A stretch of 64,000 bases of DNA from Balanoglossus misakiensis (lineage: Eukaryota > Animalia > Hemichordata): assembly GCA_040954595.2 (NCBI GenBank), contig CM082594.2, positions 1,754,247-1,818,246 on the forward strand. The letters are read 5' to 3'. This document shows positions 3,373 through 64,000 of this stretch, in pieces. Position 1 is the stretch's first letter, and each line of letters starts with the position of its first letter. The position numbers and the translations under genes are program-made. A model generated the notes under the pieces. That model had not been told where the DNA came from. It made no database searches and saw only the letters and a list, made by a program, of their open reading frames with translations.

Positions 3373-4311
3373 AAACACTGCTTGAATTTCTACAATTATT
3401 AAGCAAACGGAAGCTTCACTAACACATAGGCGTACACACAGAGCACGCGGCACGATAATTGTGTGCGTGGCCAGCTGATTGACCATATAATTTATATGGG
3501 AGAGAGCGGTTTTGTCTTGTTATATCCTACAAAAAGTGACCATATTAAAGTGGAGAAATAATGACCTGATAATTTGTGTGGCCGATCGACTGTCCCTATC
3601 TAAGGCCTATATTGGTATGTTATGCAAGACACACTATTCGAAATAACGCCTGTCCGACAGTCCGAGACTGGTTGTTTTTCCATCAGACTGATAGTAAAAA
3701 AGTTACCAGTCCGGCGGACAGGTTGAATTTAGCGTGGAGTTGACTTGTTTGCGGTATCATAGACGTACGTGACCCCATCGTGACCCTGGCTGTCCGGGAT
3801 AGCACCACCAACGATATCTTTTAGACCATCCTCTGTTTATTAGCCCCCTATTGCAATTAATTACCGTCCCTATCTTATATTGGAGGGAACGGGTTTGTTT
3901 TGGCATGTTATGCAAAACACTTGAAAGATGAATTTTTAAAAAAAAAAATGGCGTTTATGACATACAGATGTAACCGACCCCATAAGGTCCCAATGATATA
4001 TATTTACATCATACACCAAATTGGACTTAAAAACCAAAAATTGAAAGCCGCTGGAGTTTCTGCGACCATGAACTCAACGTAAGCTGGACACTACTCACTC
4101 CGAGCCCGACCTGGTAATTTGTATGTTGTCCATCGAGCGCCTATAGCTTAGACCTATACAGGAGAGAACGGTTTATGAAGTTATGTTCAACAAAAATATA
4201 TGATCATGGAATTAGAGAATTTGGACGAAAAAAAATATAATTAAAAATGGACGTTTACGACGACAAAAAGGAAGACTGTTTAATGCAAAAGTTAAGAAAA
4301 AGGAAAAATTC

Positions 4312-4431
4312 AAGCCTACGGCACGTGGTATTCCCAGGCGGTCACCCATCCAAGTACTAACCACGCCCAACGCAGCTTAACTTCGGTGATCGGACGAGAA
4401 CCGGTGTATTCGACGTGGTATGGCCGTAGGC
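4312..4431 (-). rRNA. RNA5S: 5S rRNA (consensus)
   Basis: Identical to consensus copy. Confidence 0.97.
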
Positions 4432-5368
4432 AAACACTGCTTGAATTTCTACAATTATTAAGCAAACGGAAGCTTCACTAACACATAGGCGTACACACAG
4501 AGCACGCGGCACGATAATTGTGTGCGTGGCCAGCTGATTGACCATATAATTTTTATGGGAGAGAGCGGTTTTGTCTTGTTATATCCTACAAAAAGTGACC
4601 ATATTAAAGTGGAGAAATAATGACCTGATAATTTGTGTGGCCGATCGACCGTCCCTATCTAAGGCCTATATTGGTATGTTATGCAAGACACACTATTCGA
4701 AATAACGCCTGTCCGACAGTCCGAGACTGGTTGTTTTTCCATCAGACTGATAGTAAAAAAGTTACCAGTCCGGCGGACAGGTTGAATTTAGCGTGGAGTT
4801 GACTTGTTTGCGGTATCATAGACGTACGTGACCCCATCGTGACCCTGGCTGTCCGGGATAGCACCACCAACGATATCTTTTAGACCATCCTCTGTTTATT
4901 AGCCCCCTATTGCAATTAATTACCGTCCCTATCTTATATTGGAGGGAACGGGTTTGTCTTGGCATGTTATGCAAAACACTTGAAAGATGAATTTTTTTTA
5001 AAAAAATGACGTTTATGACATACAGATGTAACCGACCCCATCAGGTCCCAATGATATATATTTACATCATACACCAAATTGGACTTAAAAACCAAAAATT
5101 GAAAGCCGCTGGAGTTTCTGCGACTATGAACTCAACGTAAGCTGGACACTACTCACTCCGAGCCCGACCTGGTAATTTGTATGTTGTCCATCGAGCGCCT
5201 ATAGCTTAGACCTATACAGGAGAGAACGGTTTATGAAGTTATGTTCAACAAAAATATATGATCATGGAATTAGAGAATTTGGAGAAAAAAAATATAATTA
5301 AAAATGGACGTTTACGACGACAAAAAGGAAGACTGTTTAATGCAAAAGTTAAGAAAAAGGAAAAATTC

Positions 5369-45173: not shown

Positions 45174-45232
45174 TATCGACACGACGACCGTGTCGATAGG
45201 TGCATTAAAGCACCTTATCGACACGATCACGA
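45174..45232. repeat. Copies of the TATCGACACG-N-CGTGTCGATA palindrome
   Basis: Same motif as the 60719-62967 minisatellite. Confidence 0.8.
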
Positions 45233-45624: not shown

Positions 45625-46130
45625 TACGGTGGCTCTCTCATGTCAGGCCTAAAATATTATTTTGAAAGTTAAACTTTCAAAATTATAGACAATATCTTCT
45701 CCCAAAAGTAAACTTAAGTTTTGGTGAAGGCAACTATAATTTTGACGCACACAATTTCAATTTCAGTGGAGTAAACTTTTTAATTTTGACAGTAAAACTT
45801 TAAATTTACTTTACACAACTCTTATTTTAGAGAGCAAAAGTTTAATTTCCGAAAGCCAATTTTATTTTTTCCGAGAGTAAAATTTTAAGATTTTTTTCCA
45901 AAATAAACTTCTAACACTTGAGATAAAATATTATCTATACTACATAGAATTTTTTTATTTTCAGAAAGAAATAGTTAATTTTGTAAAACTTTTTTTAAGT
46001 AACATTACTTTTCGCGGGTGAAAATTGTATTTTACAGATGTAAATATATTTTTATATAATTTCTAGTTACACAACTTATGGGGGCGCTCTTTCTATTGCT
46101 ACTGACAAACTTTTTCATGGGGGCGCTATT
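45625..46130 (+). repeat. Left terminal inverted repeat
   Basis: 45731-46130 is a near-perfect reverse complement of 60192-60591. Confidence 0.88.
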
Positions 46131-46275
46131 ATTTTTTTCAAGTGCTACTTTGTAACTTTTTAGGGAACAGTGAAACTTTTTTTTCGACAAGCACAAATAT
46201 TTTTTTAACGGCGGCGGAAGTTGAAGTATCCCACCATGCCATGCCACAGCAACGTTTTTCTCCTAAACCTCTGCC

Positions 46276-46587
46276 ATGGCCGAAGAGTACATCGTCGTTA
46301 CGGACAAGCAGAGCGGCCAAACCGTCGAGTTGCCGCTCGAACGAGACGAAACTTTATTGTTAAGCACTGTTCAGTGCCAATTTTCCGGAGCCTGTGGTGT
46401 AAGGTACCGAACTGTCAATGTCATCGATGGATGCCTCACAATTCGTGGCCTCAGATGTGTGAATGGTGTCATTTATCCACCAAATAATGGGCCCGGGTAC
46501 ATGGTAATCAACTTGAGGTTGTATATGCCAATTCTCCTGCATCTAGTGGTAAAGGGGGTGATGCCAGTGCCGGTAAAGTTACTCCCG
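46276..46587 (+). pseudogene. Cargo gene exon 1: TDP-43 N-terminal (TDP43_N)-like domain, 1 frameshift near 46487
   Basis: EYIVVT...VELPLERDETLLLSTVQCQFSGACGVRYR...IRGLRCVNGVIYPP matches TDP-43 EYIRVT...[29 protein letters not shown]...MRGVRLVEGILHAP; shifted frame gives W...GNQLEVVY and ends at G|GTAAGT donor (46588). Confidence 0.88.
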
Positions 46588-46791
46588 GTAAGTTGCCTGT
46601 TCTACCGTCTACGTGTGTTTCTTTATTTTGTAATCTGAGAGATTTACAAAACCTGGATTATTCACGAATCGCTTCAGCTGATGCGGATCTAGCCTAGCCC
46701 CGCATGACCGTCCGAGACGTGTAACGCCAGAAACACAGAGCGTGTACGAAGTGATATGCAGATCAGGTCAATTTAATAGTGCACGTCTTTA

Positions 46792-47214
46792 GGGACATTT
46801 CTTCAGCCGGGGTGGATTCTATTTTGTTGATATCAAAATGTGGCTAACCCCACCCCCCCCTCATTGAACATTTAAAAGTTGGTGACACCTCCCATACCAA
46901 CTTTCAAAAACTTAGGGAATGAATAACAGTGACAATTTGCATTTATGCATTAATTTAAATAATTAAAATATAACATGAATAAACAAAATATGCAAGTCAT
47001 TACAATAATTGGCAGACATAGTAATCAAGAGAAGTGAAGGGGGTGGGATGGTTGTCCCCTTCCACGTTAGAAAATCTTGTAGTATACAGAGCTTGAAACT
47101 GAATTTTTGTGTACTCAAAAGCAATTTTAGTCCCTCATTCAGCATTTCCAAATCAAGGTGACCCCCTATAATCCACTGCCCCCCCCCCCCCGACTGAAGA
47201 AACTGACCAGTCCC
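46792..47214. mobile_element. PIF/Harbinger-like MITE in the intron
   Basis: GGGAC..TTTCTTCAGCCGGGG / CCCCGACTGAAGAAA..GTCCC imperfect TIRs, TTA on both sides. Confidence 0.65.
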
Positions 47215-47430
47215 TTAGCCCCTGTATGATACCATTATTTTTAGGGACAGGGGGGGCATGAGTGTGGGTGTGCTTCGAAACGATTTGATTCAATTAGATA
47301 TTTGCTTTTTAACTGCAAGCCAATAAAGCAATAAACAGTATTGATCACAGCATAGGCTTTTGGCTGCTTCTCCAAATTGTCTTACGTGTTGAAACATTTG
47401 TGTCTGTTTTTCATACACGATTTATCAATC

Positions 47431-47561
47431 TGATTAAAATCAGATGTAGGGAACGGCGACGTCTTTTAATTATACGCGGTGCCTAGTGTGAGGCGACAGC
47501 ATAAGAATATCGTACCACGTAAGTAAAGGACGTCGCTGTTCCCTACATCTGATTTTAATCA
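47431..47561. repeat. 131-bp foldback/MITE in the intron
   Basis: TGATTAAAATCAGATGTAGGGAACGGCGACGTC...GACGTCGCTGTTCCCTACATCTGATTTTAATCA, ~38-bp arms. Confidence 0.75.
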
Positions 47562-47689
47562 CTGAGTGATATGCTGAAGCTTTCTGACTTACTGTACTTT
47601 TTTCTATCTACTTATATATGGAACCTATTCTTTAAACCTCAGTTTATCTCTGGTTATAACAATTTTATGTTATTATCCATATTTTTCAG

Positions 47690-48070
47690 TTTCAACATAT
47701 GCAGAAAAGATGTTTGGTCGAGTAAAGTCATTCAGTGCATTCAAAGAGGAAAAGAATTCATATCGTAAATTCACACCAAAAGGGAGCAGAAGGAAAGGAG
47801 TAGGAAAGACAAGCCATGAAGATGATGTCCAGATCTCAATAGGTGTCATGTATTTCGATGAGAAGCTGCAACAGCTGAAGCCACACTGGGGAAAACGCCT
47901 CCAATCCAGGCCAAAACTAATGCAACTTATGCAACAATATTAGAGACAGGACTTCAAAAATGGAAGTCTTTGAAGAAGAATTTCATTGATGAACAACAAA
48001 ACTATATACTTGTGTATGAAGATGGATCGCAAGCACTTTTCATCCCAGGATCAGAGAAGAAAGAATTTTT
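47690..48070 (+). pseudogene. Cargo gene exon 2, 5' part (basic region plus probable ubiquitin-like domain), frameshift near 47900
   Basis: TTTTTCAG acceptor at 47689 joins phase-1 in frame with ORF 47710; VQISIGVM...LKPHWGKRL/PIQAKTNATYATILETGLQKW...YILVYEDGSQALFIPGSEKKEFF continues across the L1 TSD into MLSRYKDELG. Confidence 0.8.
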
Positions 48071-48179
48071 TTTTTTTTTTTTTTTTTTTTTATTTATTTT
48101 TTTTTTCATTTCAAAAATACAGGACAAAAACAAAAAAGTCGACAAAGACAAGAAAAAGAAAGAAACCACAAAAAGAACA

Positions 48180-51100
48180 CTAATCAACGAACAAGTTGAC
48201 AAAAGCTCCCCATTTTTCTAGATGTATCCCCTGTCTATCATTTGTAGTGGCTACATTATCTTCTATTTTATAAATAGATTTCACATATGATTTAAACTGA
48301 AGCATGTTTGGCAAAACATTCGATACTTTACATTTAAAAATATAAGAACGTCCAATCAAAAGAATGAAATTTGCAAGTTGACTACCCCCCTCATCTATAT
48401 TACCCAGAATACAATACATTGCACTTAACCTTAGTGTATTAAGTGTAACAGTAAAAAACCACTCTTTCACTGAAATCCAAAACTGAGTAGTATAAATACA
48501 ATCCCAAAAAAGATGGTAATAATCCTCTACGACATCTTTACAAAAAATACAAAGTGGGGAGTCAATTATTCGCCATTTGTAAAGCATGCGGTTTGAAGGC
48601 AAGATCTTCATTATTAGTTTGTACTGAAAATTCCAAAGCTTAATATCATTTGTTAATTTGAAAGGAAGCGAAAACACAGTTTTTAAGGAAAATACTTCAT
48701 CAAATACATCGTACCAATAACGTATTATGTGTGGAGAAAGCTCCTGAGGTGTTTGTAAATTCAGAAAAAAAGTGTACATCTCTCTATTGAGTTTTTTACC
48801 AGACAAACAATTGGGATTACGAAAATTAGGCTTACATACCAGTAGTTTGGATGAGTGTGAATTCTGTACAATATTTTTCCAATCAAGTGGTATTGCACAT
48901 AATAATTGATTATACTGAAATTGTGTACAAATATTACCATATATTGTAATAAACTGCTCATAATTATAAAACTTACAATTAGCATCGATAAGATCATTAA
49001 TAAAAATAACACCATTCCTTGAAAAGTTATTCCACAATATTGGCTTATCACTAATTCGTATATCAGAATTATTGCAAATTAGTTCTTGGCATACATCGTC
49101 TTTATCAGATACTGTAGTGGTATTATACTGCAGCCATGCTGAATAAATTTGTCTTAAGAAAACAGAATTAATGGGGTTCAAAATATGAAAATCATCTTTT
49201 TTTAAATTGGCATAATACACTTGGGGCCCACCAAAACTGGAAAGAACAAATTTATACCATTTACTACAAAATAAACTATTGTTGCACATGATCCTCAAAA
49301 ACCAGGCTGTCTTTAGCGTCAAATTAAAGGCAGGCAAATTTGTCAAATTGAGACCCCCATTTACATATGAATTGTAGATGGTATTCCTCTTAATCTTGTC
49401 TCGCTTACCACCCCACAAAAAATTGAAAACTAAAGTTTCATACTTTTTAAAGAAGTCATTACCAGGAGATGGTAGAGACATGAAAAGATGAGTAAACTGT
49501 GAATTGACCAAGGATTTTATAATTGTTACTTTCCCATAAAAAGTGAGCCCCCTACCCTGCCATGGCTGCAGTATCTTCCTCGCCTTTTCAAGCCGAGGAT
49601 TAAAGTTGACAGTTACAAGATGTGATGAATTATTTGGAATGTGGATACCAAGAACATTAACATCGCCATCAGTCCATACTAAAGGAAAGGCAGTATTGAT
49701 ATGGAAATCAGTGTTTTTAAGAGACCCAATGCGCAATACCTTACATTTCTCATAATTGGGTTTCAGACCAGAGAATGTAGAAAACACTTTCAAAATATCA
49801 AGCAAAGCATTAAAAGAACAATAATCAGGTTGACAAGGAAAGTTTGTGTCATCGGCATATTGTGAAATCTTGTTATCGATAGGGCCTGTCTTTAGACCTT
49901 TAAAGTCATTACATGTTCTCACCCGTATTGCCAGCATTTCTACGGCTATTACAAATAAATATGGCGACAGTGGGCAACCCTGTCGAACACCCCGAGAAAG
50001 AATAAAATTTTCAGAAATATGACCATAATTGATAATACGACTGGAAATATTGTTATACAAAACTTTTATCCATGACAGAAAAGAAGGACCGAAATTAAAA
50101 TACTCTAAGCTCTTAAGAATAAAATCCCATCTCAATTTGTCAAAAGCCTTCTCAAAATCAGCAATGAAGACCAAACCTGGCTCTTTATTCTTCTCGTACA
50201 AATCTATAATCTCCAAAAGCCTCCTAATATTATCTGCAATAAATCTACCATGAATAAAACCAGTTTGGTCCTCATTGATAATTGTAGTAATAACTCGTTT
50301 AACACGCAATGAGAGACTTTTGGCAAGAATGCGAGTATCACAACAAAGTAAAGTTAAAGGTCTCCAATTCTTTAAAAAAGTTGGGTCCTTATCATTACCC
50401 TGCGCATCCTGTTTTAGGAGAAGTGATAATAGCCCCTCCCTCTGTGAAGGTGATAAAAAGCCGCATTCAAAGGAATAATTGAAGCTATTAAGCATGGGTG
50501 TGCACAATTCTGTGAAGAAAGCTTTATAAATTTCAACGGGCATACCATCCAACCCTGGAGATTTTCCAGTTGGGAAGGATTTAATGGCTTGCCATAATTC
50601 ATTGGCAGTAATAGAGCCTTCACATATATGCTGTTCAAAACTACTCAGCCGATTCACATGGTTATCGGTAAACAAAATGGAACAGTCCTCATGATTAAGA
50701 GGGACTGGAGGGTCTACAAATGCATAAAGTTCTTTAAAAAATACAACTTCTTCCCTCAAAATGTCTGTTGGGTTTGATAAAATAGTTCCGTCAGACCGAA
50801 CAAGAGACATAACATTTTTTCTTGAATAGTTTCTGTGAACAAGATTAAGAAAATAGTTTGTAGGACGTTCGCCCCAATTAAGCCATCTACCTTTGGCACG
50901 GATCATAAGCCCAGCTGTTCTAGCTGCATAAATAGACTCAAGTTCGTCCTGTTTCATCGATAAATGCAGATTATTGTCATCTGTATAATGATCAGAACCC
51001 GAGTCAATAATAGTATGAAGCTCATTAATTTCCTCAATTAAACGATTCTCCTTTTCTTTACATTTGCGCTGTTTAATTGAGCTAAATTTAATGCAATGAC

Positions 51101-51992
51101 CTCTAAAAGCACATTTGAAAGCATCCCAAACACTGTTTGGATTCGCAGAACCATTATTAGCACTAAAGAAATCTGAAATAAAGCGTTTTGACTGGGTGAT
51201 GAAATTCTGATCGTTAAGAAGAGAATTATTAAAATGCCAGTAACCCTTGCCACGCGTGAAAACACTAGTTTCAAAACCAATACTAATGAGATGATGGTCA
51301 GAACGATATCTTTCTCCAATGACAACATTCATAATTTTTGAAGAAAGACAAAAAGACACTAGAAAATAATCTATTCTACTGGCACGATTGCCTCTTCTCC
51401 AGGTGTAACGCCTCACAGTTGGATTACGTAACCGCCAGATGTCACATAAGTCCCACGAATGCATTAATTGTTTAATGCTTTTGAATGCATTCATATGATA
51501 ATTACCCCGACCAGTGCCAACTCTATCAAGCAAGTCATCTTGAACAGTGTTGTAGTCTCCAAGAATAATGATATTCGACGTATCATTACCAAAATTAAAA
51601 AGAATTGAGTGAATATTCTCAAAGAAAACAGGAGTGTCATCATTTGGGGCATAAATGCAAACAAGGATGAACCGCTGCGCATCAACAGTGATATCAATCA
51701 TGATCCAACGGCCATCAGAATCAACCCTAGTTTGGTGAAGGGTATAAGAGAAATTATTTTTAAACAGAATCGCAACCCCTCTCCGATTACTTGTGCCATG
51801 ACTAAACAGGATGTCAGCACCCCATTCAGCTTTCCAATACTGTTCACTGTGTTCAGTGGAGTGGGTTTCTTGTAAGCAATAAATGTTGTGTGATTTATCA
51901 CGCAACCAAGTAAAAATCTCCCTTCTTTTAACTGAGTTAGCTAGCCCATTACAGTTGTAGGAAGCAATATCAATCTTACAGACACCAGTCAT
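48180..51992 (-). CDS. L1/Tx1 ORF2 (APE endonuclease, reverse transcriptase, C-terminal zinc knuckle), 1270 aa
   Basis: SYNCNGL, LQETH, GDYN, SRIDY, SDH (EN); KSPGLDG, WRPLTLL, DFEKAFD, GVRQGCPLSP, QYADD (RT); CIFC...HLFWDC. Confidence 0.97.
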   Translation of the reverse strand: MTGVCKIDIASYNCNGLANSVKRREIFTWLRDKSHNIYCLQETHSTEHSEQYWKAEWGADILFSHGTSNRRGVAILFKNNFSYTLHQTRVDSDGRWIMIDITVDAQRFILVCIYAPNDDTPVFFENIHSILFNFGNDTSNIIILGDYNTVQDDLLDRVGTGRGNYHMNAFKSIKQLMHSWDLCDIWRLRNPTVRRYTWRRGNRASRIDYFLVSFCLSSKIMNVVIGERYRSDHHLISIGFETSVFTRGKGYWHFNNSLLNDQNFITQSKRFISDFFSANNGSANPNSVWDAFKCAFRGHCIKFSSIKQRKCKEKENRLIEEINELHTIIDSGSDHYTDDNNLHLSMKQDELESIYAARTAGLMIRAKGRWLNWGERPTNYFLNLVHRNYSRKNVMSLVRSDGTILSNPTDILREEVVFFKELYAFVDPPVPLNHEDCSILFTDNHVNRLSSFEQHICEGSITANELWQAIKSFPTGKSPGLDGMPVEIYKAFFTELCTPMLNSFNYSFECGFLSPSQREGLLSLLLKQDAQGNDKDPTFLKNWRPLTLLCCDTRILAKSLSLRVKRVITTIINEDQTGFIHGRFIADNIRRLLEIIDLYEKNKEPGLVFIADFEKAFDKLRWDFILKSLEYFNFGPSFLSWIKVLYNNISSRIINYGHISENFILSRGVRQGCPLSPYLFVIAVEMLAIRVRTCNDFKGLKTGPIDNKISQYADDTNFPCQPDYCSFNALLDILKVFSTFSGLKPNYEKCKVLRIGSLKNTDFHINTAFPLVWTDGDVNVLGIHIPNNSSHLVTVNFNPRLEKARKILQPWQGRGLTFYGKVTIIKSLVNSQFTHLFMSLPSPGNDFFKKYETLVFNFLWGGKRDKIKRNTIYNSYVNGGLNLTNLPAFNLTLKTAWFLRIMCNNSLFCSKWYKFVLSSFGGPQVYYANLKKDDFHILNPINSVFLRQIYSAWLQYNTTTVSDKDDVCQELICNNSDIRISDKPILWNNFSRNGVIFINDLIDANCKFYNYEQFITIYGNICTQFQYNQLLCAIPLDWKNIVQNSHSSKLLVCKPNFRNPNCLSGKKLNREMYTFFLNLQTPQELSPHIIRYWYDVFDEVFSLKTVFSLPFKLTNDIKLWNFQYKLIMKILPSNRMLYKWRIIDSPLCIFCKDVVEDYYHLFWDCIYTTQFWISVKEWFFTVTLNTLRLSAMYCILGNIDEGGSQLANFILLIGRSYIFKCKVSNVLPNMLQFKSYVKSIYKIEDNVATTNDRQGIHLEKWGAFVNLFVD

Positions 51993-52354
51993 ATATAGCG
52001 GAAAATGGAATAAAAAAAGAAAGAATCATGAAAAATAAAAAAATAAAAAGCATAGAAAAATTGTCAATGGGAATTTTTTTTTTGACCATGATACCAAAGA
52101 GGGGAAAACAAGTAAGGAGCAATTATCAACGACACACATGAGGAACGGAAAAAGACAAGAAAGAAAAAAAAACACAAAAACACAACAAGGGGGGGGGGGG
52201 AACAAAAGGAAGGAGAGAAAAGGCGCCGATAAACAAAGCCGAAGAATAGAATGTCTCCAACCCCGCAAATACCCATATGAAAATACTGCAAAATGAACAC
52301 ACAGAACCTTCGTAAAAAACAAACTCCGTAAACTTAACCCAACTACATTATTAA

Positions 52355-53209
52355 TTAAGCTACAGCTTCTAAGCGTCTGTTCACTTTACCGTCAATAATA
52401 AGCAAGGCACAGCATTCACGTGGTGGCACTCGTAACTGTACACGGCAACCATCTTTCTTGGCGTTGTAATATGCTGGCAAGAGTTTGTTGCGCGCATTCT
52501 GTAAAACAGGTGGTAAATGTTCGTGAACAATAAATTTGGTGTCCTTCAATAAATGGCCACGGCTGAGAACATCATTCCTGTCGCTAAGATTGACGAATCT
52601 TGCCAAAATAGGTGGAGATGGGCGGCTTTCCGAGGGCTTGGCGAGACGATGAACCGAGCAGAGTTGTAGCTGTTCAGCAGTCGGTAATTTTAACGATTCC
52701 TTGAAAAAAGTGCGCGTTTTGCGTTCAACATCTTCATCTTTAACGAACTGGATGCCACGTATAATTATATCATTCTTTCTACTGAATCTATCCAACAGCA
52801 ATTGGGCGGCAATACGTTCACGGCGTTCATTTTTCAATGCCTCGCGCAATGAGTCCATTTCCGCAGCCACGTGTTCCTGACTACGTTCAACACCAGTAAT
52901 CTTTTCCTTCAACACTGCAACATTTTCCACGGTCGAGTTCAGTTTAGCGACAACCATAGACATTTCTTGAGTTAATTCGTCTTTAACTTTGTCTATTTTA
53001 TCTGACAAAGTTTCGTTCTGCTTCGTAAGTATCGCTGCCAAAGCTTTCAGTTCAGGTGACGAAAGTTGTGGAAAGGTGTCTTCGTCGGCGTGTTGCATAA
53101 CACTGTCTAGGTCAGTACTCACGATATCAGCAATGGACGCCATGTTAAGACTACCGGTGGAGCTTGTCGAGGACTTCGGCCGGTTTCGTTTTCGTCCCTT
53201 TCGTACCAT
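52355..53209 (-). CDS. L1/Tx1 ORF1 (coiled coil, RRM, CTD), 284 aa
   Basis: Basic N-terminus, heptad-rich helix, SRKNDIIIRGI, VHRL, PPILARF, EHLP motifs; upstream of ORF2. Confidence 0.92.
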   Translation of the reverse strand: MVRKGRKRNRPKSSTSSTGSLNMASIADIVSTDLDSVMQHADEDTFPQLSSPELKALAAILTKQNETLSDKIDKVKDELTQEMSMVVAKLNSTVENVAVLKEKITGVERSQEHVAAEMDSLREALKNERRERIAAQLLLDRFSRKNDIIIRGIQFVKDEDVERKTRTFFKESLKLPTAEQLQLCSVHRLAKPSESRPSPPILARFVNLSDRNDVLSRGHLLKDTKFIVHEHLPPVLQNARNKLLPAYYNAKKDGCRVQLRVPPRECCALLIIDGKVNRRLEAVA

Positions 53210-53379
53210 ACGGCTAAAAGTCAGTTCCTACGAACCGCAATGACGTTATGCCAAAATATTTACAACCGGAGTGCTATATACGCAGTATTCTTGAAGAAAA
53301 AATAGGGTTTGTGCGAAGGCTGGAGAGCACACGTCCGACTAGGCAGCCATGATATGCTAATCGAGAAGAAAGAATTTTT

Positions 53380-54928
53380 CATGTTATCTCGATACAAAGA
53401 TGAACTTGGAGTTGACTACAAGAGAATAAAGCTGTTCCTCTGTTCCGAACGTGACTTTGATACATCCATGGGATATGACACTCTGTCAAACCCTGAAGAA
53501 AGTGATGGTGGTGAGGTTTCTGAGAATCATGGCTGTTCAAATGCAAGAGAGCACAATAAAGAGAGACAAAAAAGAAAAGTCACAAATGAAGAAGTGCATG
53601 ATGTTGGAGATGACAAAACTCGTGAGAAGCATCCATGTGTAATGACCACACCCAAGGCCACTACATCAGTGGTCAATGAAGATCCGACAGAAATCAAGAA
53701 AAGTAGGTTGGAGATTGATGATGTGTATGCCACTTTATTTTCTGATGAAAATGAAACTGTGTACATATCAGATTCTGGTGATGATATCCAACAAGTACCT
53801 CCCGATGCAACCACCACAGTACCACTTGCAGAGATTTTGGCCAACCTTGCCGAGCAGATTGATCACAGCAAGACATCACAGTTCAATATTTCCAGAAATC
53901 ATCTTTTTGATGGTGTCAAGAGAGGCCTAAAACGCAAGTCATTCCATCCAAAAAATAAGATTTCTGTGAAATTCACAGATGATGATGGCTCATCAGAAGG
54001 AGCTGTGGATGCAGGGGGCCCTATGAGGGAGCTCTTGACATTAACCATGAACTATATAACCAATAGTGAGCTCTTTGATGGTGAACACAACCAGAAATAC
54101 TTATCATGTGTTAGTAGATGCGCTGATGAAAATGAGTATTGCATGGCAGGTCAGCTAATTGCCATGTCTCCTGTCCATGGAGGTCCTGCTCCCCACTGCT
54201 TTGCAGACCATTTCTACCAAGCTATTGTACATGGATGTGACTCAATCAAGCCTACTATTGATGATCTCCCTCAGAACAACCCAGTAAAAGCTGACCTCAC
54301 TGCATTGCAAAATGCGCCCATTGATGAAGCCAACCAAGTGCTGACTGATAACTTAGAAAGTATCACTGAGATTGCTGGTACATGGAGACTGATACGTACT
54401 GAAATTGACAAGTCAGCAGTCATTGGGTCCACAGTGAAATGGTACATGTATGGCAGAAATAGAGAAGCCTTTGATCAGTTTACTGATGGGTTGTCTTCAC
54501 TTGGTGTACTTGAGGCTATGCGGCAGTACCTAACAAGCTTCCAGCCTGTCTTCTGTGAGCCTGCTCCACTAACTACTGATATGTTTTTATCTGATGTTAC
54601 ACGGAGTGAGGAAGGATCCAATATGTTCAACGCTGAAAGTCTTCTCCTGTCATACTGGGCAGATTTCTTGCAAGATGTCCAAGATCAAGAAATAGACAAT
54701 GTGACACTGGCCGAGATAATGATGTTTACCATTGGGTGTACAGAGCTTGTCGAAGGACTAACTCCAAGAATTATGTTCCTTCATGGAAGTGAAGCTCAAT
54801 CTAAATTCCCCAAAGCCAACACTTGTGCTGGTGCGCTCCACCTTCCAATATTACACAAAACATATGATGCATTTAAACATGCTATGGCTTTTGCCATAAC
54901 CAATTCCAAGGGTTTTGGTTATGGATAA
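53380..54928 (+). CDS. Cargo gene exon 2, 3' part: acidic linker plus G2E3-type HECT E3 ubiquitin ligase domain (open frame, gene disrupted upstream)
   Basis: ISVKFTDDDGSSEGAVDAGGPMRELL, GQLIAMSPVHGGPAP, FPKANTC (catalytic Cys), LHLP, terminal GFG. Confidence 0.92.
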
Positions 54929-55287
54929 GTCTGTTACAGACAGTGTACTGGAAAATATGTTCAGAATAGACAGGTTTCCAGACTGACAAAACAGGGTTCA
55001 GTTTAGACAGGTTTTACTGTTCTATTTTTACAGAATTGTGTACCCCGTTTTTCCCTCAAGAGTTGACATTCCTTTTTTTAAAGTTTGAAGTTACTGTTAT
55101 ACTGGTAATGTGTGGTGATATGGCCACTGGAGAGCTATTTTTTATTGGATTTGTTATATCTGGAACTCAAACGCCTCAGAAGTGATTTCATACAAATTGC
55201 TTGTGTTATACATATACACATGGATTGTTTTTGTTAAATTTTATGACTACAGTTACAAATTGTGGGGACTATGTCATTAACAATGCG

Positions 55288-55432
55288 CCCCTTTCATAAG
55301 TCTGGTACCATCACGCAGCCATCATGTATTTGAACTCAAAGCGAGGCCAATGGGGAAAAGTTGACCAATCACTTCGAGGTTCAAATTCATAATTGCTGCA
55401 TGAGGGCCTGGGCACTAGACTTATGAAAAGGG
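55288..55432. repeat. Small foldback/MITE
   Basis: CCCCTTTCATAAGTCTGGTACC ... GGCACTAGACTTATGAAAAGGG imperfect inverted arms. Confidence 0.55.
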
Positions 55433-56423
55433 TGTATGGAATTTACTTTTCTTATACTTTTCCTGCGTAATTACTTGAAATCATCACAAGTGCCACAGTG
55501 GCTATTGGCTCTAGTCTTTAACCTTTAAAACTGTTTACCATTGTTACTGTATTTTTAGAGCATGCAACTGTTTGTAGATTTTGTAGTGATGTTACTATCA
55601 TGCCTGACTTAAATGCTAATACATGTAGTTCTATACACAGTGCTGTTAACAAATGTGGCCAATTTTAATGAGGTTTATTTGTTTGATCAGGAATCTTGAC
55701 TGCACTTAACTATACCCAGCCCTAGCTGGGTTCAACAATTTCTCCCACAATCAGAGGACCTCCATTCATAGCTGGACTCACTGCTGGAGGCCAAGCCAGA
55801 GTGGTAGCGAACAATCATTCGGAGTTGAGGGTCTGTAATCACAATAATAGTCAGACATTTTTCACATCGGACAGTGTCTGGACAATTGTGTGTGATGTGA
55901 ACATTCATAACAACTTACTGTTCAGTGGGGGTATCAATGTTTTGCCATTGACAGAGAAAGATGACACAAAAAAGAACAGTATAAACTATACCAGTACATG
56001 TATTGATAATCAGACTGAAACAACACTGTGTACTTTTTATATTGTATGTCATGAAGAGTATTATAGAATGAGGAGGATCACTAGAGGCAATAACATTTTA
56101 CAGTGTATTAGATAGTGAACAGTCTACTAGTTTGCATGAAAATTGGGCAATGGGAGGCGTTACCAGTGTTTACCTAGGACATTGTGCATGTTTTACAAGA
56201 AATGTTTCACTAAAGTTGTATTCAACTATTGTGTGCTTTTATATCGCTGCATTAAATGGTTCTGACTTAAATATTTTTGTGGGTGTTTTTTTTCAATCCT
56301 ACAGCCATGAAGATATGTATGGCTGTTGTGTGTGCTGGCTGATGGATGTACCACAAGGATGTGAGCAGTCATGATATTTTGTGTATACTGTATGATAATG
56401 TGTGTGTATTTACATACCAGTTT

Positions 56424-56788
56424 GTATGTATGTATGTATGTATGTATGTATGTATGTATGTATGTATGTATGTATGTATGTATGTATGTATGTATGTATG
56501 TATGTATGTATGTATGTATGTATGTATGCATGCATGCATGCATGCATGCATGCATGGATGTATGCATGTATGTATGTATGTATGTATGTATGTATGTATG
56601 TATGTATGTATGTATGTATGTATGTATGTATGTATGTATGTATGTATGTATGTATGTATGTATGTATGTATGTATGTATGTATGTATGTATGTATGTATG
56701 TATGTATGTATGTATGTATGTATGTATGTATGTATGTATGTATGTATGTATGTATGTATGCATGCATGCATGCATGCATGCATGCATG
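56424..56788. repeat. (TATG)n/(CATG)n microsatellite
   Basis: ~365 bp of tetranucleotide repeats. Confidence 0.98.
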
Positions 56789-56792
56789 GCTG

Positions 56793-56886
56793 GCTTGGCT
56801 TTGGGTGTGAGAATGGGTGGTTTAATAGATGGGTGAATGTTTCCAGCCATCTATTAAACCACCCATTCTCACACCCAAAGCCAAGC
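56793..56886. repeat. Perfect 40-bp inverted repeat with 14-nt loop
   Basis: GCTTGGCTTTGGGTGTGAGAATGGGTGGTTTAATAGATGG / CCATCTATTAAACCACCCATTCTCACACCCAAAGCCAAGC. Confidence 0.95.
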
Positions 56887-57314
56887 AATCCATCCATCCA
56901 TACATAAATAAATACATAACTACATCTGGGTATGTAAACACACACACACATTGCCATACAGTATGTGTGCATGCATGCATACTGAGACAGCCAGACAGGC
57001 ACTCGCGCATACATTCATGATACATACATCGACACACACACTTATAAAAACATATCACTTCTAGCCTACAACTAACTGGCACATAAATATGAAAAACAGA
57101 AGCTAAAGAACTCAGTGGCGATTTGTAGCATTTTGGAATAATGACAATTGACAAATCTTTATTTCATTTCAATATGCCAATATTTACTGGCCTGGTTTAT
57201 TGCTTTATTGCAATACACAGGAATAAAGATTGTCTTTTACTGGGTGTTGTCTTGAAATCTGATACCATTCTGGCTAGATCACAGTCACATTAAACAAAAT
57301 GAATAAATAGTGTG

Positions 57315-60035
57315 TTAATATTCTCCTGCCACGTGTATTAATCCATCATACAATTGTATTGCATCTCTCCAGTGAAGTGGTTTGCTTATAGCACATGTTT
57401 GCAAAACATATTGGAAATATTGTTGATAGTCATTATCATTGTCTCTATCAATGAGTTCATGATATACATAGTTCATTTCATCCTGCGCAACAGGCTGGAT
57501 TAAGTTGTCAGCACCTCCGTGGAGTTCTGGGAGATAATAGAGGGAGTCCGGTCTGCCTGGAACAGTATCATGTCTTGACCGCCGAATGTAATGAGTGTTC
57601 CAATGTTCACGAACATGATCAAGATCATTCTGGAGTAAACACGCGAAACAAAACCACAGGCATTCTTTATGTAAATCATTAGTGGAATCAAATATACCCT
57701 GTGACTCCATATCCTTGAAGAAATTTATCCACCATGTTGAGCGGTTTTTTCTCAGAAATGACCACCATGCTTCAATTCTCTGATTCCGTGGAGATGCTAC
57801 ATATCTATGTGCATCAATGTCGTTCCGAAAAAATGCCTGTGTAGCAGCCATGGTGCCATTTTCTGTACCAAGATCAGTGAGGCTAGTTATACTTTGCGAA
57901 ACAACGAAACAGCGAAACGAAACGACGAAACCATTATTAAAATAGGGGCCAGTCATCAAGACGGTGGCGTATGATTTTTTTAAAAGTTTCCAAATAAGTT
58001 CCTGGTCTGCATTCTCGCCCCACCAGACTACGTATTTCTTTCGTTTCACTTTTTGCGGGGAGCAGAGCGCTGCCGTAAAAGGGCCGTGGTTTGCGACGAT
58101 GCTGGTCTGCGGCCTGGTACTAGTGGTTGCGCGCCAAAAAAGACACGGGGATTTTCCCTCCATTTTACTGCCGACTTTTATGAAGCAATGCACATTTTCC
58201 ATCGGAGGACTTATCTTTTCCGCCGAAAATGTAGATGAAAGGAAGTGCAAATTTCTGAAATATTTCTGAGCATCGCTACGATTGTTTTACTGTTCATGCA
58301 CTACGGCCGCTGCACACAGAGGGACACACTCACCGCGACGCTGACCTCAACAGCGCGGACATACTGTAAAATATTTCGTTTGAATTGAGAGATTTTTTCA
58401 TGATGAACAAATTCATTGCTTGTTGGGAAATACGTTACAACTTGAACCGTGGTGTGACAACTTACTTAGTCCCCAAATGCATGCCTTGCAGGGTCCAGTG
58501 CAATGACGTGTATTACCGAAATTAACATTTTCATGCCATAGCACTAGCAGTCAGATTTTTCCTGGTTGAAGCAACGAAAATGACGTATTGCCCAGTGCAG
58601 TCTGACATACTTCGAAATACATGTACTTGGATTTTCTTTATTTTACACCTCGCAACGGAGGATACGGAATGTGCATTGCTTTATAAAAGTCGTGTCACGG
58701 TCAGGAGATAAGCTTAGAATCGGCAGGCGTACACACGTAGAACGGGTAGAAGAACTATGACATTACGCTTTGACTTTCGGAATTTTGCACTTCGTTTCAT
58801 CTGATTTTCGGGGAAGAAAAGACGAATCATTTAATGGACTATGTGAAATGTGCTTTGGTTTTCAAAAATCGGCAATAATTTGAGAATATTAAAGTCCCCG
58901 CGTGTCAATAGCCGGCCCCCTATGCACTGGCTATTGACACGCGCGTGTCAATAGACACGGCCTATCTTAATTGCAATTCATGCCTCCCCGGGGGCCTTGT
59001 GGTATTTAAGGAAATAGTGACAGTTGCTGCCGCATTTTGAGGTTTCGATCTTTTGTGGTTTCGTTGTGCGCGCGTGTATATTCACTGTGTATATGTAGCA
59101 GTTTGGCATGAATCGTTTGCGCGCACACGACGTCGACTCTACCACTACATAGTACCAGGCCGCAGACCAGGAACTGGCGACCCGCCGTTTGTTTCCAACG
59201 CCAAATTTAATTCTAATGTTGAATTTCCGAGAAAACAATTTATCTGACCTGTAGTTTTCTTGGCTCGCTTACGTTTTAATTTGGAAACTTTTAAAAAAAT
59301 CATACGCCACCGTCTTGATGACTGGCCCCTATTTTAATAATGGTTTCGTCGTTTCGCTGTTTCGCAAAGTATAACTAGCCGATCAGTGATGAGCTCAATG
59401 GGACAGCCATCAAATCTGTTTACTGCTTCAAGGTAATATGCTGCAATATTATCTGGGAGATTGTTTGACTTTGTCACATTAAGCCACAATATCTTTCTAC
59501 TGTAACCATTTATGGCTCAATGTATGAGAAAGCCGAATGGTTTCAGTTTATCATAGCCGTCAACATGCCATGCAAAATTAGGTCCAGGATTCAAATATAC
59601 TCTTTTCTTGAGTCGATGTGCTCTTCTCAAAAAACTGCCTTCTGGGTCCAATTCCCTCAATAGCTGCTGAACAACAATTCTGGGAACATTGATACCTTCC
59701 ATTTTGAGACTGTGCCATACTGTCCGATAGCCACCGGTGCACTCTGGTCCATCCAGCATTTCCTTGATTTTGTCTCTCACTGCTTCGATGTCATATTCTA
59801 CTCGTCGTCTTTTCAAACCTTACGAGTTTATACGACGATCCAATGTTCGCTTACTAATACGAATATCATGGTATTTTCTTAAAAATAGAAGGATTTCGTC
59901 ATACGTGAATCCTCTAAAGAAAAAATGTCGTATCAAGCTTTCTTCGTCGTCTCCGCACATCGCCCCGTCATCAGTATCGACATCAGAAAGGTGTGGTGTC
60001 GGTGATAAACTCTCTTGGTGAGACGGAGACGCCAT
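57315..60035 (-). pseudogene. IS3/IS481-like DDE transposase (Clr5-like HTH plus integrase core), disrupted
   Basis: One frame 60035-59381 then 57880-57315: IRHFFFRGFTYDEIL..ISKRTLDR, GYRTVW, WHVDGYDKLKPFGF, ITDLGTEN, NQRIEAWW, WNTHYIR; in-frame stops at 59820-22 and 59517-19; MITE at the second Asp. Confidence 0.9.
57881..59380. mobile_element. 1500-bp non-autonomous DNA transposon (Mutator/Merlin-type)
   Basis: ~100-115-bp TIRs starting GGCTAGTTATACTTTGCGAAAC; 9-bp TSD GATCAGTGA at 57872-57880 and 59381-59389; removal restores the transposase frame. Confidence 0.93.
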
Positions 60036-60191
60036 TATTCCCGTCTGTTTGTTGGGAATGTATACTCCTGTAACGTCCTGAAAGGTGGGAATTGTGGGAT
60101 ACCTTCACTTCCGCCGCGACTAAAAAAGTATTTTGCTTTCTCAGAAAAATATTTTGTGCATCTATCTAAAAAATTTGTACACCGAAACCTG

Positions 60192-60591
60192 AATAGCGCC
60201 CCCATGAAAAAGTTTGTCAGTAGCAATAGAAAGAGCGACCCCATAAGTTGTGTAACTAGAAATTAGATAAAAATATATTTACATCTGTAAAATAAAATTT
60301 TCACCCGCGAAAAGTAATGTTACTTAAAAAAAGTTTTACAAAATTAACTATTTCTTTCTGAAAATAAAAAAATTCTATGTAGTATAGATAATATTTTATC
60401 TCAAGTGTTAGAAGTTTATTTTGGAAAAAAATCTTAAAATTTTACTCTCGGAAAAAATAAAATTGGCTTTCGGAAATTAAACTTTTGTTCTCTAAAATAA
60501 GAGTTGTGTAAAGTAAAATTAAAGTTTTACTGTCAAAATTAAAAAGTTTACTCCACTGAAATTGAAATTGTGTACGTCAAAATTATAGTTG
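60192..60591 (-). repeat. Right inverted repeat (outer end truncated)
   Basis: Reverse complement of 45731-46130; match stops abruptly at AATTATAGTTG. Confidence 0.88.
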
Positions 60592-60718
60592 TCTGTCTGT
60601 CTACTTAGTAATTTTTCTCTTCTCTCTCACCCTCTTTCCCACCCTTACCCCTTTTCCCGCTACATTCATTGCAGCTATCTGTCAGTTTTTATAATGTCCG
60701 CCCACAAAAAATGCTGAT

Positions 60719-62967
60719 AATCAACACGACCATCGTGTCGATAAGTAAGAAAAACTACGTATCGACACGACCATCGTGTCGATAATCCGTTTGTTTTTCT
60801 TATCGACACGACCATCGTGTCGATAACTGGAATTTTTGCTTACCCACACGATGATAAGCAAAAAATGCTGATAATCAACACGACCACCGTGCAGTCAGAT
60901 CGCACGGTACTCATTAACATATGTAAATGAGGGAAAGTACTTCAAACCATGTAGCCGTTAGAGTGGGCCCCGCTGACGGGTCTCGAAATAGGCCATTTTT
61001 TACTCGATATTATAGAGCTGTTTTCAGGCGATGTGGATTATTTTAAGACAAAACCGTGGATTCACTCGAAGGTACATTTTGTAGGTATACTGGATTGTTA
61101 CTGAATGATTTTTTGGCAACTTCTGTCGAGTAGTTTCTTTGTAATCGCGAAATTTCTGACGACTGTGAAAAAACACATAGCGTTGACATCCTCTCGATTA
61201 TTTTTAAGCTGACCGTTAAACATGGATTTTACCACGAAATTTCAAACTTTTATCAAAATATAGATATCAACCCCCTCTCTTTGAGTTTTCATTCACTTCC
61301 AAGCTTTCATAGTGACGATATGAACAGTTCAATTTTGTTTACTTTTCAACCCGTGAGCGCCACTTCTTCTGCAAAATGGCGGGAGAAGACAGCATGCATG
61401 TGTATGTATATACGCTGGCGCAGGCTTGATCCTGGGATTGAACCGGCTGCGACGTTTTCCTTCCTCTCTCGTGCGAAGAAATTGTGATTGCTGATATGTA
61501 ATCCCGAGTTTTACTAAACCCTAACAATTATTTTATGAAGGTTTGCCCGTCAAGGAAACTCACTTTTTTTATTGTTCTTTCAGATTGATGAAGACTGATT
61601 TTTGTGGTGGTGGTGTTGCAGTTGACTGTTTTATTTTAGCTGTCTGAGTTGACAATTTATTCTGTATTTTGTTGTATTTTTAACTCTTCATTCTGTATTT
61701 TGTAGTAGTATTTTGAACACTGTTTAATAAATAAATTACTATTATTATTATTTATCGACCCAATGCAATGATGACAAATCGCTCGCTTTCAGACACAAAT
61801 GTTGTATTTATTGCATATATCATCAGCGAATAAATGGAAGTGGTTTCGAAGTTACACTTGGCATATTCGAAAAGTCTACTTATATCCCACGATAAGGAGA
61901 GAACAAATAAAAACACGCCAGCTGAGCTCCTCATACGTAGTCACGTACGGTAAACCTGGCATTCTGTGCATGGGTAATCAAATACATTTTGTATTTGTTT
62001 GTAGCCCAATGTAGGCGTACGGCGTGTGGAGCACCCGGGCGCGGCACTCGTGCGATTGATCGATGTTGTGTCGAAATCAAGCCAGTAATTAAGATAAAAC
62101 TTGGCTAATATGTTACCTTAGAGTGTTATACACTATCCAGTAACTTTTACTTGACAAGTGTCTTTTAGAAACCATTTTCCCCACGATAAACGCGTCGTTT
62201 CACGAGCAACGCAACACTTCCGTATTTACAAGCCGAACATTGAGAGGTCAACGTAGGGCCTATACTTCCGGGTCATATCGTCGAAGTACATCGATTATTT
62301 TTAAGCTGAACGTTACACAGGCATTTCGAATTAATTTCTTTTCACGGATGTTGGGACCGATATTAGACCTATCTGTCACGAAAACTTGGTTAACTTCCGA
62401 GGTCGACTTCAAATGATTTTTGGCACGTTTGTGGACGTCTCTTCCGAGGTCACCAACATACCACCGAAAACACGTTAAAAACTACTACTATTACCGACAG
62501 ATTCTCATAATATTCACGTCTGCAGTGTAAAATGGGAATCACTTTTGTAATTTATCGAGCTAGCATGGTATTTTATTGTATCAAGGAGTGTAAAAATCAA
62601 GTTGAAAATCACCTTGAAAACTGGCCTATTGCCGTCTGTTTGAAAGTTAATGGTCGGTGGCTTGACGAACTTTAATATGCAAATGAGCACCATGCGATCT
62701 GACTGCGTGTCGATAAGTAAGAAAAACTACGTATCCACACGACCATCGTGTCGATAACGTGTTTTTTTTGCTTATCGACACGATAGTGATCGTGCAAATA
62801 AGCTGAAAATGCTTCTTATTGACACGATCACCGTGTCGATAAGCAAAAAAACACACGTTATCGACACGACCATCGAGTCGATAGGTAAGGAAAACTACAT
62901 TATCGACACGATCATCGTGTCGATAAAGCATTTTTTTTCCCTTATCCACACGACGATCGTGTCGATA
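60719..62967. repeat. Palindromic minisatellite (TATCGACACGACCATCGTGTCGATA, ~42-bp period) interrupted by a MITE
   Basis: About 11 copies at 60719-60891 and 62706-62967. Confidence 0.88.
60892..62705. mobile_element. 1814-bp non-autonomous DNA transposon, 4-bp TSD (superfamily uncertain, Academ-like ends)
   Basis: ~31-bp imperfect TIRs CAGTCAGATCGCA(C/T)GGT(A/G)CTCATT; CGTG duplicated at 60888-60891 and 62706-62709; empty-site copy at 60723-60750. Confidence 0.85.
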
Positions 62968-63154
62968 GGCGCAAACCAGACAAATGGCATTCAGACGTAC
63001 CAATAACAATTTTAATGAACATTAAAATATTTTAGAAGAACATTAAAACAGCAAAGGTGAAAAAACGCAATTCAGTCTCTCAAAATTAATAACAAAGTGT
63101 TCGATCGCGGCCCCCATCACCGGCGGTGCCCCATACCCGGAAGTCTCGCTAAGA

Positions 63155-64000
63155 CTACTCGCTATCCGAATCAAACATCACAAACGGACGCGGACGTTTC
63201 CTTGCGGCTCCAGCTCCAGCCGTCGATGGCATGCACATATGTATAGTGCAGTTGTTAAAAACTATGGCTGGAGCTGCTTGTTGTTTGAATGGACCGGGTT
63301 TTGTGTCTTCAGGAGTGCTACTGCTGGGCTTGCTTAGAATTGCTGAAATGCGCCGGTGATCCTCAATCGAAACGGTGTCGTAGTGTTGTAGACTGGAGAC
63401 GTTTTTGTGTCCGGTTATTTTTATTATCTGCTGTGGTGGGATTCCTGCCTTCGTCTGTGTTTGAACGGTTGTCTTCCGTACAGAGTGATTTGTTTTTCGC
63501 CCACCAAACGGCACGACGATCTCCATATGTTCCATCGCGTGTTTTGGTATCGCGTTCCCGGAACTCTAAAAAATCGAGGCCAGAGCTATCCCTTTGGATA
63601 GTGATGTCTCCGAAGCACAGTTTTCTGTGCTCGTCCCGACCGCGTAGACCGAAGTGCTTCGTGAATAAATACCACAGAGTGAAATTCAAGGTGTCACCGT
63701 CAGCGCTGCCAAGTTTGCCTTCTTTCCACATTGCCTCCTCTTCTTCTGGAGATATAGCTTCACTAGCATGACTGCCAGAGCCCATGCCAGACTTCTTTAG
63801 CTGCATCCGTTTAGCTTTAATTGCGTCATTTGTCAACGCGAAGCTCTTGTCATTCAACAACACCCCATAGTTGTTTTGCCCATAGTTGTTTTGCGCTATA
63901 CTTTACATCTGAAACAGAGCCTGGTTCGTAGTCAGTGCCGTCAGCTTTTTTGAGATTGACGAAGAATGTTGCTAGATATTCGTTCAACGTCTTGGGTGGT
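63155..64000 (-). pseudogene. Crypton-type tyrosine recombinase (DUF3504/KCTD1-ZMYM-like), with deletion and frameshifts; runs off the right edge
   Basis: LNEYLATFFVNLKKADGTDYEPGS, FGLRGRDEH, TKTRDG, TNHSVRKT, TGHKN, SLQHY give the R-K-HxxR-H-Y set; frame breaks near 63880 and 63505. Confidence 0.9.

Follow-up and report, generated by a model that had tools for sequence, protein, structure and literature searches.

We analysed a 64,000-nucleotide stretch of the genome of the hemichordate Balanoglossus misakiensis (assembly GCA_040954595.2, contig CM082594.2, positions 1,754,247 to 1,818,246 of the forward strand; hereafter, the window), in which a damaged two-gene unit, most probably a broken DNA transposon of the IS3EU/GingerRoot type, lies between positions 45625 and 60594. 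The unit is bounded by two inverted repeat arms (45728-46130 and 60192-60594) that match over 403 nt at 98% identity in opposite orientation, where terminal inverted repeats (TIRs) of IS3EU/GingerRoot elements exceed 30 bp. Between the arms, a HECT gene on the plus strand and an IS3EU-type DDE transposase gene on the minus strand converge, which gives the two encoded proteins typical of these elements. A previous reading of the window made from its letters alone (the sequence-only reading) had described repeats of ~400 bp around exactly two convergent genes, and this description holds. So does its estimate of a unit of ~8 kb, since removing two nested insertions, each with one copy of its target site duplication (TSD; 5309 and 1509 bp, respectively), leaves 8152 bp.

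The two ends of the unit are not equally preserved. The left TIR (45625..46130, plus strand) starts with TACGG, an IS3EU-type end that lies 103 bp beyond the paired part of the arm, which begins at 45728. The right TIR (60192..60594, minus strand) is truncated, without the outer 103 bp and the terminus, and the arms of this copy consequently measure 506 bp on the left versus 403 bp on the right. Because no second copy of the left arm's outer 103 bp is present anywhere in the window, the copy has neither a right terminus nor a readable TSD. Of the TAYGG..CCRTA pair of termini, the window thus holds only the left, at 45625; the right end of the element is lost, or displaced past the window edge. 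On the inner side of the arms, a decayed continuation of the repeat (46131..46275, plus strand) contains a motif common to both arms directly before each ATG and may represent a mirrored promoter. On the two sides, 46173-46240 and 60088-60155 match at 74%, and the local score of the inner regions was reached in none of 2000 shuffles. Measured from the inner end of each arm, the ATG of the ligase (46276) is 146 bp further in and that of the transposase (60035, read off the sequence) 157 bp. The distance of ~150 bp originally proposed is therefore correct, while its placement inside the repeats is not, the ATGs lying beside the arms rather than within them.

The transposase gene is split in two. 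Its N-terminal part (59381..60035, minus strand), which spans the helix-turn-helix (HTH) region and a WHVDGYDKL motif that includes the first catalytic Asp, is interrupted by premature stops at 59820-59822 and 59517-59519, while its C-terminal part (57315..57880, minus strand) lies beyond the second catalytic Asp and includes an NQRIE motif with the catalytic Glu. Both halves are 62-64% identical to an intact homologue. The protein matches PF24764 (rva_4) with an E value of 8.2e-14, the HTH_21 match being below the cut-off. Its WHVDGYDKLKP, SRKI.WL, TD.GTEN and NQRIE..W motifs agree by eye, with no tree including Repbase sequences, with Repbase rows such as IS3EU-1_HM, IS3EU-5_DR and IS3EU-4_CGi as given in part 12 of 18 of the supplement to PMC10045372. 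The assignment to IS3EU made in the sequence-only reading is thus supported motif for motif in the core and by the TACGG left end.

The ligase gene begins with a TDP-43 N-terminal domain (NTD) in exon 1 (46276..46517, plus strand; 3' end at a donor after 46517 or 46587), which matches PF18694 (TDP-43_N) and the TDP-43 NTD in the PDB, each with an E value of 3e-16 (atlas 0.95). In the ATG frame, neither donor fits the phase of exon 2, and no small intron that would repair the phase was found when sought by eye; the gene may therefore have a further frameshift, or an exon that escaped notice. The first part of exon 2 (47690..48065, plus strand) encodes a middle domain and carries a frameshift near 47901-47904, where tblastn of a Ptychodera flava homologue (P0077) switches frame. 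The remainder (53363..54928, plus strand) comprises the end of the middle domain, an acidic linker and an intronless HECT domain with a PKANTC cysteine motif and an FGYG end. Among named proteins, the closest relatives of the HECT protein are from the hemichordates P. flava (71%) and Saccoglossus (54%). P0077, whose model ends early within the HECT domain, has the same domain order as the window gene, and the pieces that follow TDP-43_N in the window align to its middle domain and HECT domain. The linker before the HECT domain (~53720) contains a near-invariant Tyr-x-x-Leu-Phe-like motif (Y298 of homologue P0071), the pattern being found in 79 of 107 homologues, which might be a regulatory or docking motif.

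Sequence features of the HECT and TDP-43_N domains bear on what the intact protein could do. PF00632 (HECT) matches with an E value of 1.7e-11 over profile positions 10-304 of 306, the profile matches 56 solved HECT sequences, and the structural model of P0071 matches HECT folds. In HECT ligases, a Phe near the C-terminus is expected in addition to the catalytic Cys, and both residues (C380 and F396) are invariant in 50 aligned sequences. The Cys motif is detected by pattern in 75 of the 76 homologues with a complete C-terminus (out of 107), and the 76th also shows a Cys. As for TDP-43_N, alignment by eye indicates that the residues of the head-to-tail interface of the TDP-43 NTD (PMC5491494), Glu17, Glu21, Gln34, Arg52 and Arg55, are kept in the window and in P0077, and mostly not in a scallop protein with the same domain. 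The window domain also has Gln in place of Glu14, and insertions in the loop around Ser48, with an Asp aligned at that position. Neither the window gene nor the scanned homologues show an RNA recognition motif (RRM), expected after TDP-43_N in TDP-43 orthologues, and no N-terminal RING/PHD finger of the G2E3 type was found in the window gene or in 26 scanned homologues.

Two insertions interrupt the genes. The first, which splits exon 2 of the ligase, is a full-length L1/Tx1-type retrotransposon (48066..53362, minus strand) with a poly(A) and two intact open reading frames, ORF1 (52355-53227) and ORF2 (48180-52025; 1281 codons encoding endonuclease, reverse transcriptase and zf-RVT), flanked by a TSD of 12-17 bp (48054-48065/53363-53374). 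A 2180-bp contig assembled from one of three sequencing runs (X1) connects 48053 directly with 53363 and shows 0 and 1 differences. Since this contig represents an empty site, the L1 is a late insertion; the dominant X1 contig lacks it, and it is probably young or polymorphic. The second is a non-autonomous DNA transposon (57881..59380, no strand assigned) with imperfect TIRs of ~115 bp, GG..CC ends and very high contig depth, whose 9-bp TSD, GATCAGTGA, overlaps the codon of the second catalytic Asp of the transposase. Together with the two stops in the transposase, the frameshift in the ligase and the lost right end, these insertions leave a dead copy that cannot move by itself. Neither its dead state nor the absence of its right end had been mentioned in the sequence-only reading. 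The three runs come from one sample, possibly the source of the window, and contig depth is not a copy number. In run X1, depth is 190-205 over both genes and ~7-12 times higher over the TIR. The contigs from this organism share the exon-2 frameshift, and the X1 contigs of both transposase halves continue into the 1.5-kb insert with 0 differences. An estimate of ~3-4 copies from depth (190-205 in the interior versus 26-67 at single joints) was dropped, as depth is unreliable and a single copy or a segmental duplication would fit as well.

The same gene pair recurs in other genomes. A search with a 50-sequence HECT alignment recovered 160 metagenome loci; the best 80, which fall into 43 nucleotide clusters, were kept (L001 and following). 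An IS3EU-type transposase is found at 18 of the 80 loci (11 of 43 clusters), always downstream of the HECT gene and on the opposite strand. When the count is limited to loci whose HECT end is complete and which have at least 2 kb of downstream sequence, the transposase is present in convergent orientation in 16 of 18 loci (10 of 11 clusters), and with at least 3 kb in 10 of 10. The two misses are L028 and L061, the latter with a cluster mate (L060) that holds a transposase fragment further out. No transposase match was found in 164 kb of sequence upstream of HECT (versus 90 kb examined downstream), and none on the same strand. Inverted repeats bracket both genes in four loci (L005, L008, L009 and L074), with TATGG at both ends and 252-bp repeats at 99.6% identity in L074. 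Both TAYGG-type ends are also seen across contigs, in L014 together with L012/L013. Moreover, L012 and L013, like L073 and L074, share the same right terminus with different flanks, and therefore represent separate insertion sites. Two transposase subtypes, with a DKL or an HKL motif and only ~27-33% identical to each other, are both paired with HECT. These findings support the proposal, made from the window alone, that the HECT gene is integral to the element. The HECT core itself is one open frame in the window and in L001-L025, and is in five pieces (boundaries at matching profile positions, ~165, 230, 288 and 360), likely separated by four introns, in L035, L049, L053, L060 and L073.

Scans for HECT confirmed none of 143 pattern matches in viral contigs and none of 115 in genome contigs. 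The accession neighbours of named HECT and transposase proteins contained no pair, which is uninformative since the two families differ. The idea that many 'G2E3-like' gene models are transposon genes, also raised by the sequence-only reading, gains support in the form of dispersal only: among the 15 of 23 members listed for one 90% cluster, 'G2E3-like' proteins occur on eight Acipenser ruthenus contigs, and two clusters span seven Argopecten irradians contigs.

The HECT gene is under purifying selection. In the three pairs of homologues with unsaturated synonymous divergence (dS) above 0.1, the ratio of nonsynonymous to synonymous divergence (dN/dS) is 0.21, 0.22 and 0.18; four more distant pairs were saturated, and six near-identical pairs had too few changes. 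The dS of HECT tracks that of the neighbouring transposase (0.17 versus 0.20, and 0.35 versus 0.35), and L008/L024 and L053/L049/L074 are grouped in both the HECT and the transposase trees.

The modules in front of the HECT domain vary. Among 50% representatives, 827 sequences are related to the middle domain. Most of the best 150 are fragments; 52 of them carry a zinc ribbon at the N-terminus, 27 extend as far as a HECT match, and a CUE domain is found in 6 of the 78 longer ones scanned. Modelled on a homologue of the window gene and not on the window copy (80-sequence alignment headed by L005; predicted local distance difference test score 91), the middle domain matches ubiquitin-like folds (best Z 8.7, root-mean-square deviation 3.3 over 87 aligned residues). 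It is thus predicted to be ubiquitin-like, a likeness of fold that shows no function. The same middle domain stands behind TDP-43_N in P0077 and behind a zinc ribbon in P0011, L005, L009 and L020, which bears out the notion of a swappable N-terminus contained in the sequence-only reading. A second middle-domain class, in coral and sturgeon proteins, appears unrelated (profile-profile comparison of the two classes gave no similarity, probability 0.2) and looks beta-grasp-like to judge only by the secondary structure modelled for P0071, while TDP-43_N recurs with a third middle domain in scallop. On a 32-row HECT tree, the N-terminal classes are interleaved. A search for longer proteins with the TDP-43_N exon as query gave 0 of 51 candidates, the search being weak and word-limited. 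In L005 (132-797, plus strand, and 3702-5003, minus strand) and in L009, ligase and transposase both start with a similar CxxC..CxxC ribbon inside the repeats. Copying of modules between element ends was considered for these two loci and set aside, as only 1 of 120 other transposases has a ribbon. Two further proteins, P0262 and P0265, have tandem ubiquitin-like middle domains (five and three matched stretches, respectively) without HECT.

We interpret the unit as a broken IS3EU/GingerRoot-type transposon of which the HECT gene is an integral second gene, with a probability of roughly 0.85, a figure that covers the identity of the element and the status of its second gene and not the substrate of the ligase. 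By extension, a HECT gene is likely to be a regular component of IS3EU elements in animals, and many 'G2E3-like' genes in databases are likely transposon genes. Several observations weigh against this interpretation. The window contains no right terminus or TSD, and no intact sister allele (at least 92% identity) is present among the contigs listed for this organism. The metagenome loci were chosen by HECT similarity, as the best 80 of 160, and 62 of the 80 are without a transposase, mostly being too short to tell. L028, which extends 2.1 kb downstream, counts as a negative cluster, and of the transposase L060 holds just a C-terminal fragment. L074, the sole locus with both ends, has flanks that do not match at 4-10 bp, and is possibly a collapsed assembly. 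Very close HECT pairs are without sign of selection (omega of 0.95 and 1.3 on 4 and 11 differences), and at depth the HECT and transposase trees agree only weakly (Mantel p 0.053; approximately unbiased test p 0.054). Ligase genes may have been exchanged between element lineages. Finally, TDP-43_N is found in proteins of just two other species and in 0 of 80 metagenome loci.

Two of these observations, the missing TSD and the missing right end, are what would be expected if an ordinary host G2E3-like gene merely had a transposase and two short-repeat copies inserted nearby by chance. The depth of the TIR points the same way: at ~7-12 times that of the interior, it implies that the repeat also exists without these two genes. 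We nevertheless consider a chance neighbourhood extremely improbable, given that the pair is convergent in 10 of 11 informative clusters with no other arrangement seen, that the two ATGs lie symmetrically relative to the arms with a common motif upstream, and that the PHD/RING fingers of true G2E3 are found neither in the window nor in the 26 scanned homologues. A host gene captured once or repeatedly, in the manner of Pack-type elements, and carried as a neutral passenger without benefit would fit the broken state of the ligase in this organism, whose contigs share the exon-2 frameshift. GingerRoot does capture fragments of host genes, in 22 of 77 elements (PMC6839031), although these are fragments of ten different genes, whereas Pack-type capture, recognised by variable host-gene fragments without selection, contrasts with what is found here: a whole gene in fixed position and orientation in 11 clusters, with a dN/dS of ~0.2 and a retained Cys. 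Neutral carriage therefore appears quite unlikely, if less so than chance.

A further alternative keeps the transposon and its ligase, and makes the element's own transposase the substrate, with ubiquitin removing transposase from DNA after integration or capping its dose, much as ClpX remodels MuA. That the two genes stay in cis, co-diverge at shallow depth (L008/L024; L053/L049/L074) and have matching dS values would fit such a role, to which we assign an appreciable but minority chance. It sits less well with one HECT clade beside two transposase subtypes ~27-33% identical, with N-terminal modules that vary while the transposase core is conserved, and with the other enzymes that occupy the slot in fungal IS3EU. 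Since the front ends change and the transposase does not, and since the fungal slot holds a kinase or TET/JBP genes, we rank a host silencing or restriction factor first as substrate, albeit tentatively and at somewhat less than even odds.

The following mechanism can be proposed. A promoter in each repeat would fire inward, so that both genes would be expressed together. The HECT protein of intact copies is likely an active E3 ubiquitin ligase because the catalytic Cys is kept, and its exchangeable front end (TDP-43_N or a zinc ribbon, the ubiquitin-like domain and sometimes CUE) would pick the substrate or oligomerise the enzyme. The ligase would then tag host proteins with ubiquitin, easing the spread of the element, while the copy in the window would later have gathered its stops, frameshift and two insertions, and lost its right end. 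A bolder version is that a hemichordate IS3EU captured TDP-43_N as a homing device that, with its head-to-tail interface retained, joins oligomers of host TDP-43, so that HECT ubiquitinates this transposon-restricting protein, and that the 'G2E3-like/GL-Metazoa' HECTs are a transposon family with swappable targeting modules from which the late-appearing vertebrate G2E3 HECT arose; we regard this combination as unlikely. Because TDP-43 restricts L1 in mouse embryos (PMC9683724), a decoy role for TDP-43_N is conceivable.

How does this element compare with known systems? IS3EU elements have TA..TA ends and usually 6-bp TSDs (PMC10045372), with a TAYGG..CCRTA terminus pattern (PMC12730594), and encode two proteins (PMC10853768). 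Their structure and function have been called largely unexplored, and acorn worm was among the first hosts named (PMC11934779). The nearest named HECT relatives here are from Ptychodera and Saccoglossus. The window shares with IS3EU/GingerRoot the core motifs of an IS3-related DDE transposase, the TAYGG left end, long TIRs and two proteins, and departs from it in being a dead copy with arms of 506/403 bp. Rust-fungus IS3EU elements carry an alpha-kinase gene in opposite orientation to the transposase, or TET/JBP genes (PMC12730594). They have TAYGG..CCRTA ends, of which the window holds the left, and resemble the window in having a second enzyme gene opposite to the transposase, while differing in that the partner is a kinase or dioxygenase rather than a HECT E3 with ubiquitin-like modules. 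By analogy, these fungal partners suggest that the slot holds host-modulating enzymes rather than a fixed part of transposition.

Enzymes of the ubiquitin/SUMO system are encoded by other DNA transposons, including Ginger1 with OTU or Ulp1 protease domains (PMC2836005) and Helentrons with an OTU domain (PMC6431247). However, these enzymes take ubiquitin or SUMO off their targets and are encoded as fusions with a transposition protein, whereas the window has a separate gene whose product would add ubiquitin. Surveys of HECT ligases name G2E3 and a divergent GL-Metazoa family (PMC3673628; PMC2837046; PMC11353290), and the window HECT is likewise divergent, with homologues named 'G2/M phase-specific E3 ligase-like'. 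In contrast, the HECT domain of true G2E3 is non-functional and accompanied by three RING/PHD fingers, where the window gene has TDP-43_N, a ubiquitin-like domain and a retained Cys. The accessible parts of these three surveys make no mention of transposons, the stem 'transpos' being absent from those of PMC3673628 and PMC2837046, and the word HECT is absent from the main texts of PMC10045372, PMC12730594, PMC6839031, PMC11934779, PMC6431247 and bioRxiv 10.1101/2021.09.26.461848. We thus found no description of an IS3EU-HECT pair in the literature searched, with the proviso that Repbase entries, the Kojima 2019 review or supplements may name the second protein. Compared with TDP-43 itself, the window protein shares the fold family of the NTD and most of its interface residues, and differs in having neither RRMs nor a low-complexity tail; a TDP-43 domain on an IS3EU ligase is a new and distinctive feature of this window.

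A parallel in architecture is maize MuDR, in which two convergent genes, mudrA and mudrB, are driven from promoters in long TIRs, an arrangement like the one proposed for the window. Its transposase belongs to an unrelated superfamily, and MURB is not a ligase.

Within the element, a (TGTA)n microsatellite (56423..56788, no strand assigned) separates the 3' ends of the two genes, and two small hairpin-like repeats of high depth, likely miniature elements, occur in the ligase intron (47423-47571) and in the 3' gap (~55290-55430). A palindromic repeat unit of 41-42 bp flanks the element on both sides (45174-45229, 60691-60898 and 62704-62970), and is perhaps part of a different repeat that the IS3EU copy entered. 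Positions 1-44350 are occupied by a tandem array of 5S ribosomal DNA (32 Rfam hits; units of ~1058, 1160 and 1310 bp) arranged as three blocks that alternate in orientation, with the minus strand up to ~9 kb, plus from 9.6 to 27.2 kb and minus from ~28.5 kb. At the other side, pieces of DUF3504 and of a phage-integrase C-terminus are found in two frames (63155-63902, minus strand), which are likely the remains of a tyrosine-recombinase element of the Crypton-like kind.

Should animal IS3EU elements encode a working HECT ligase as their second protein, transposons would write ubiquitin marks in addition to erasing them, the latter being what the OTU and Ulp1 domains of Ginger1 do. In that case, the HECT counts of sponge, coral, mollusc, hemichordate and fish hosts would be inflated by many 'G2E3-like' models that are really transposon genes. 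The exchangeable N-termini would offer a direct handle on the target of the ligase, and the TDP-43 domain would provide a testable link to a known retrotransposon restriction factor (PMC9683724).

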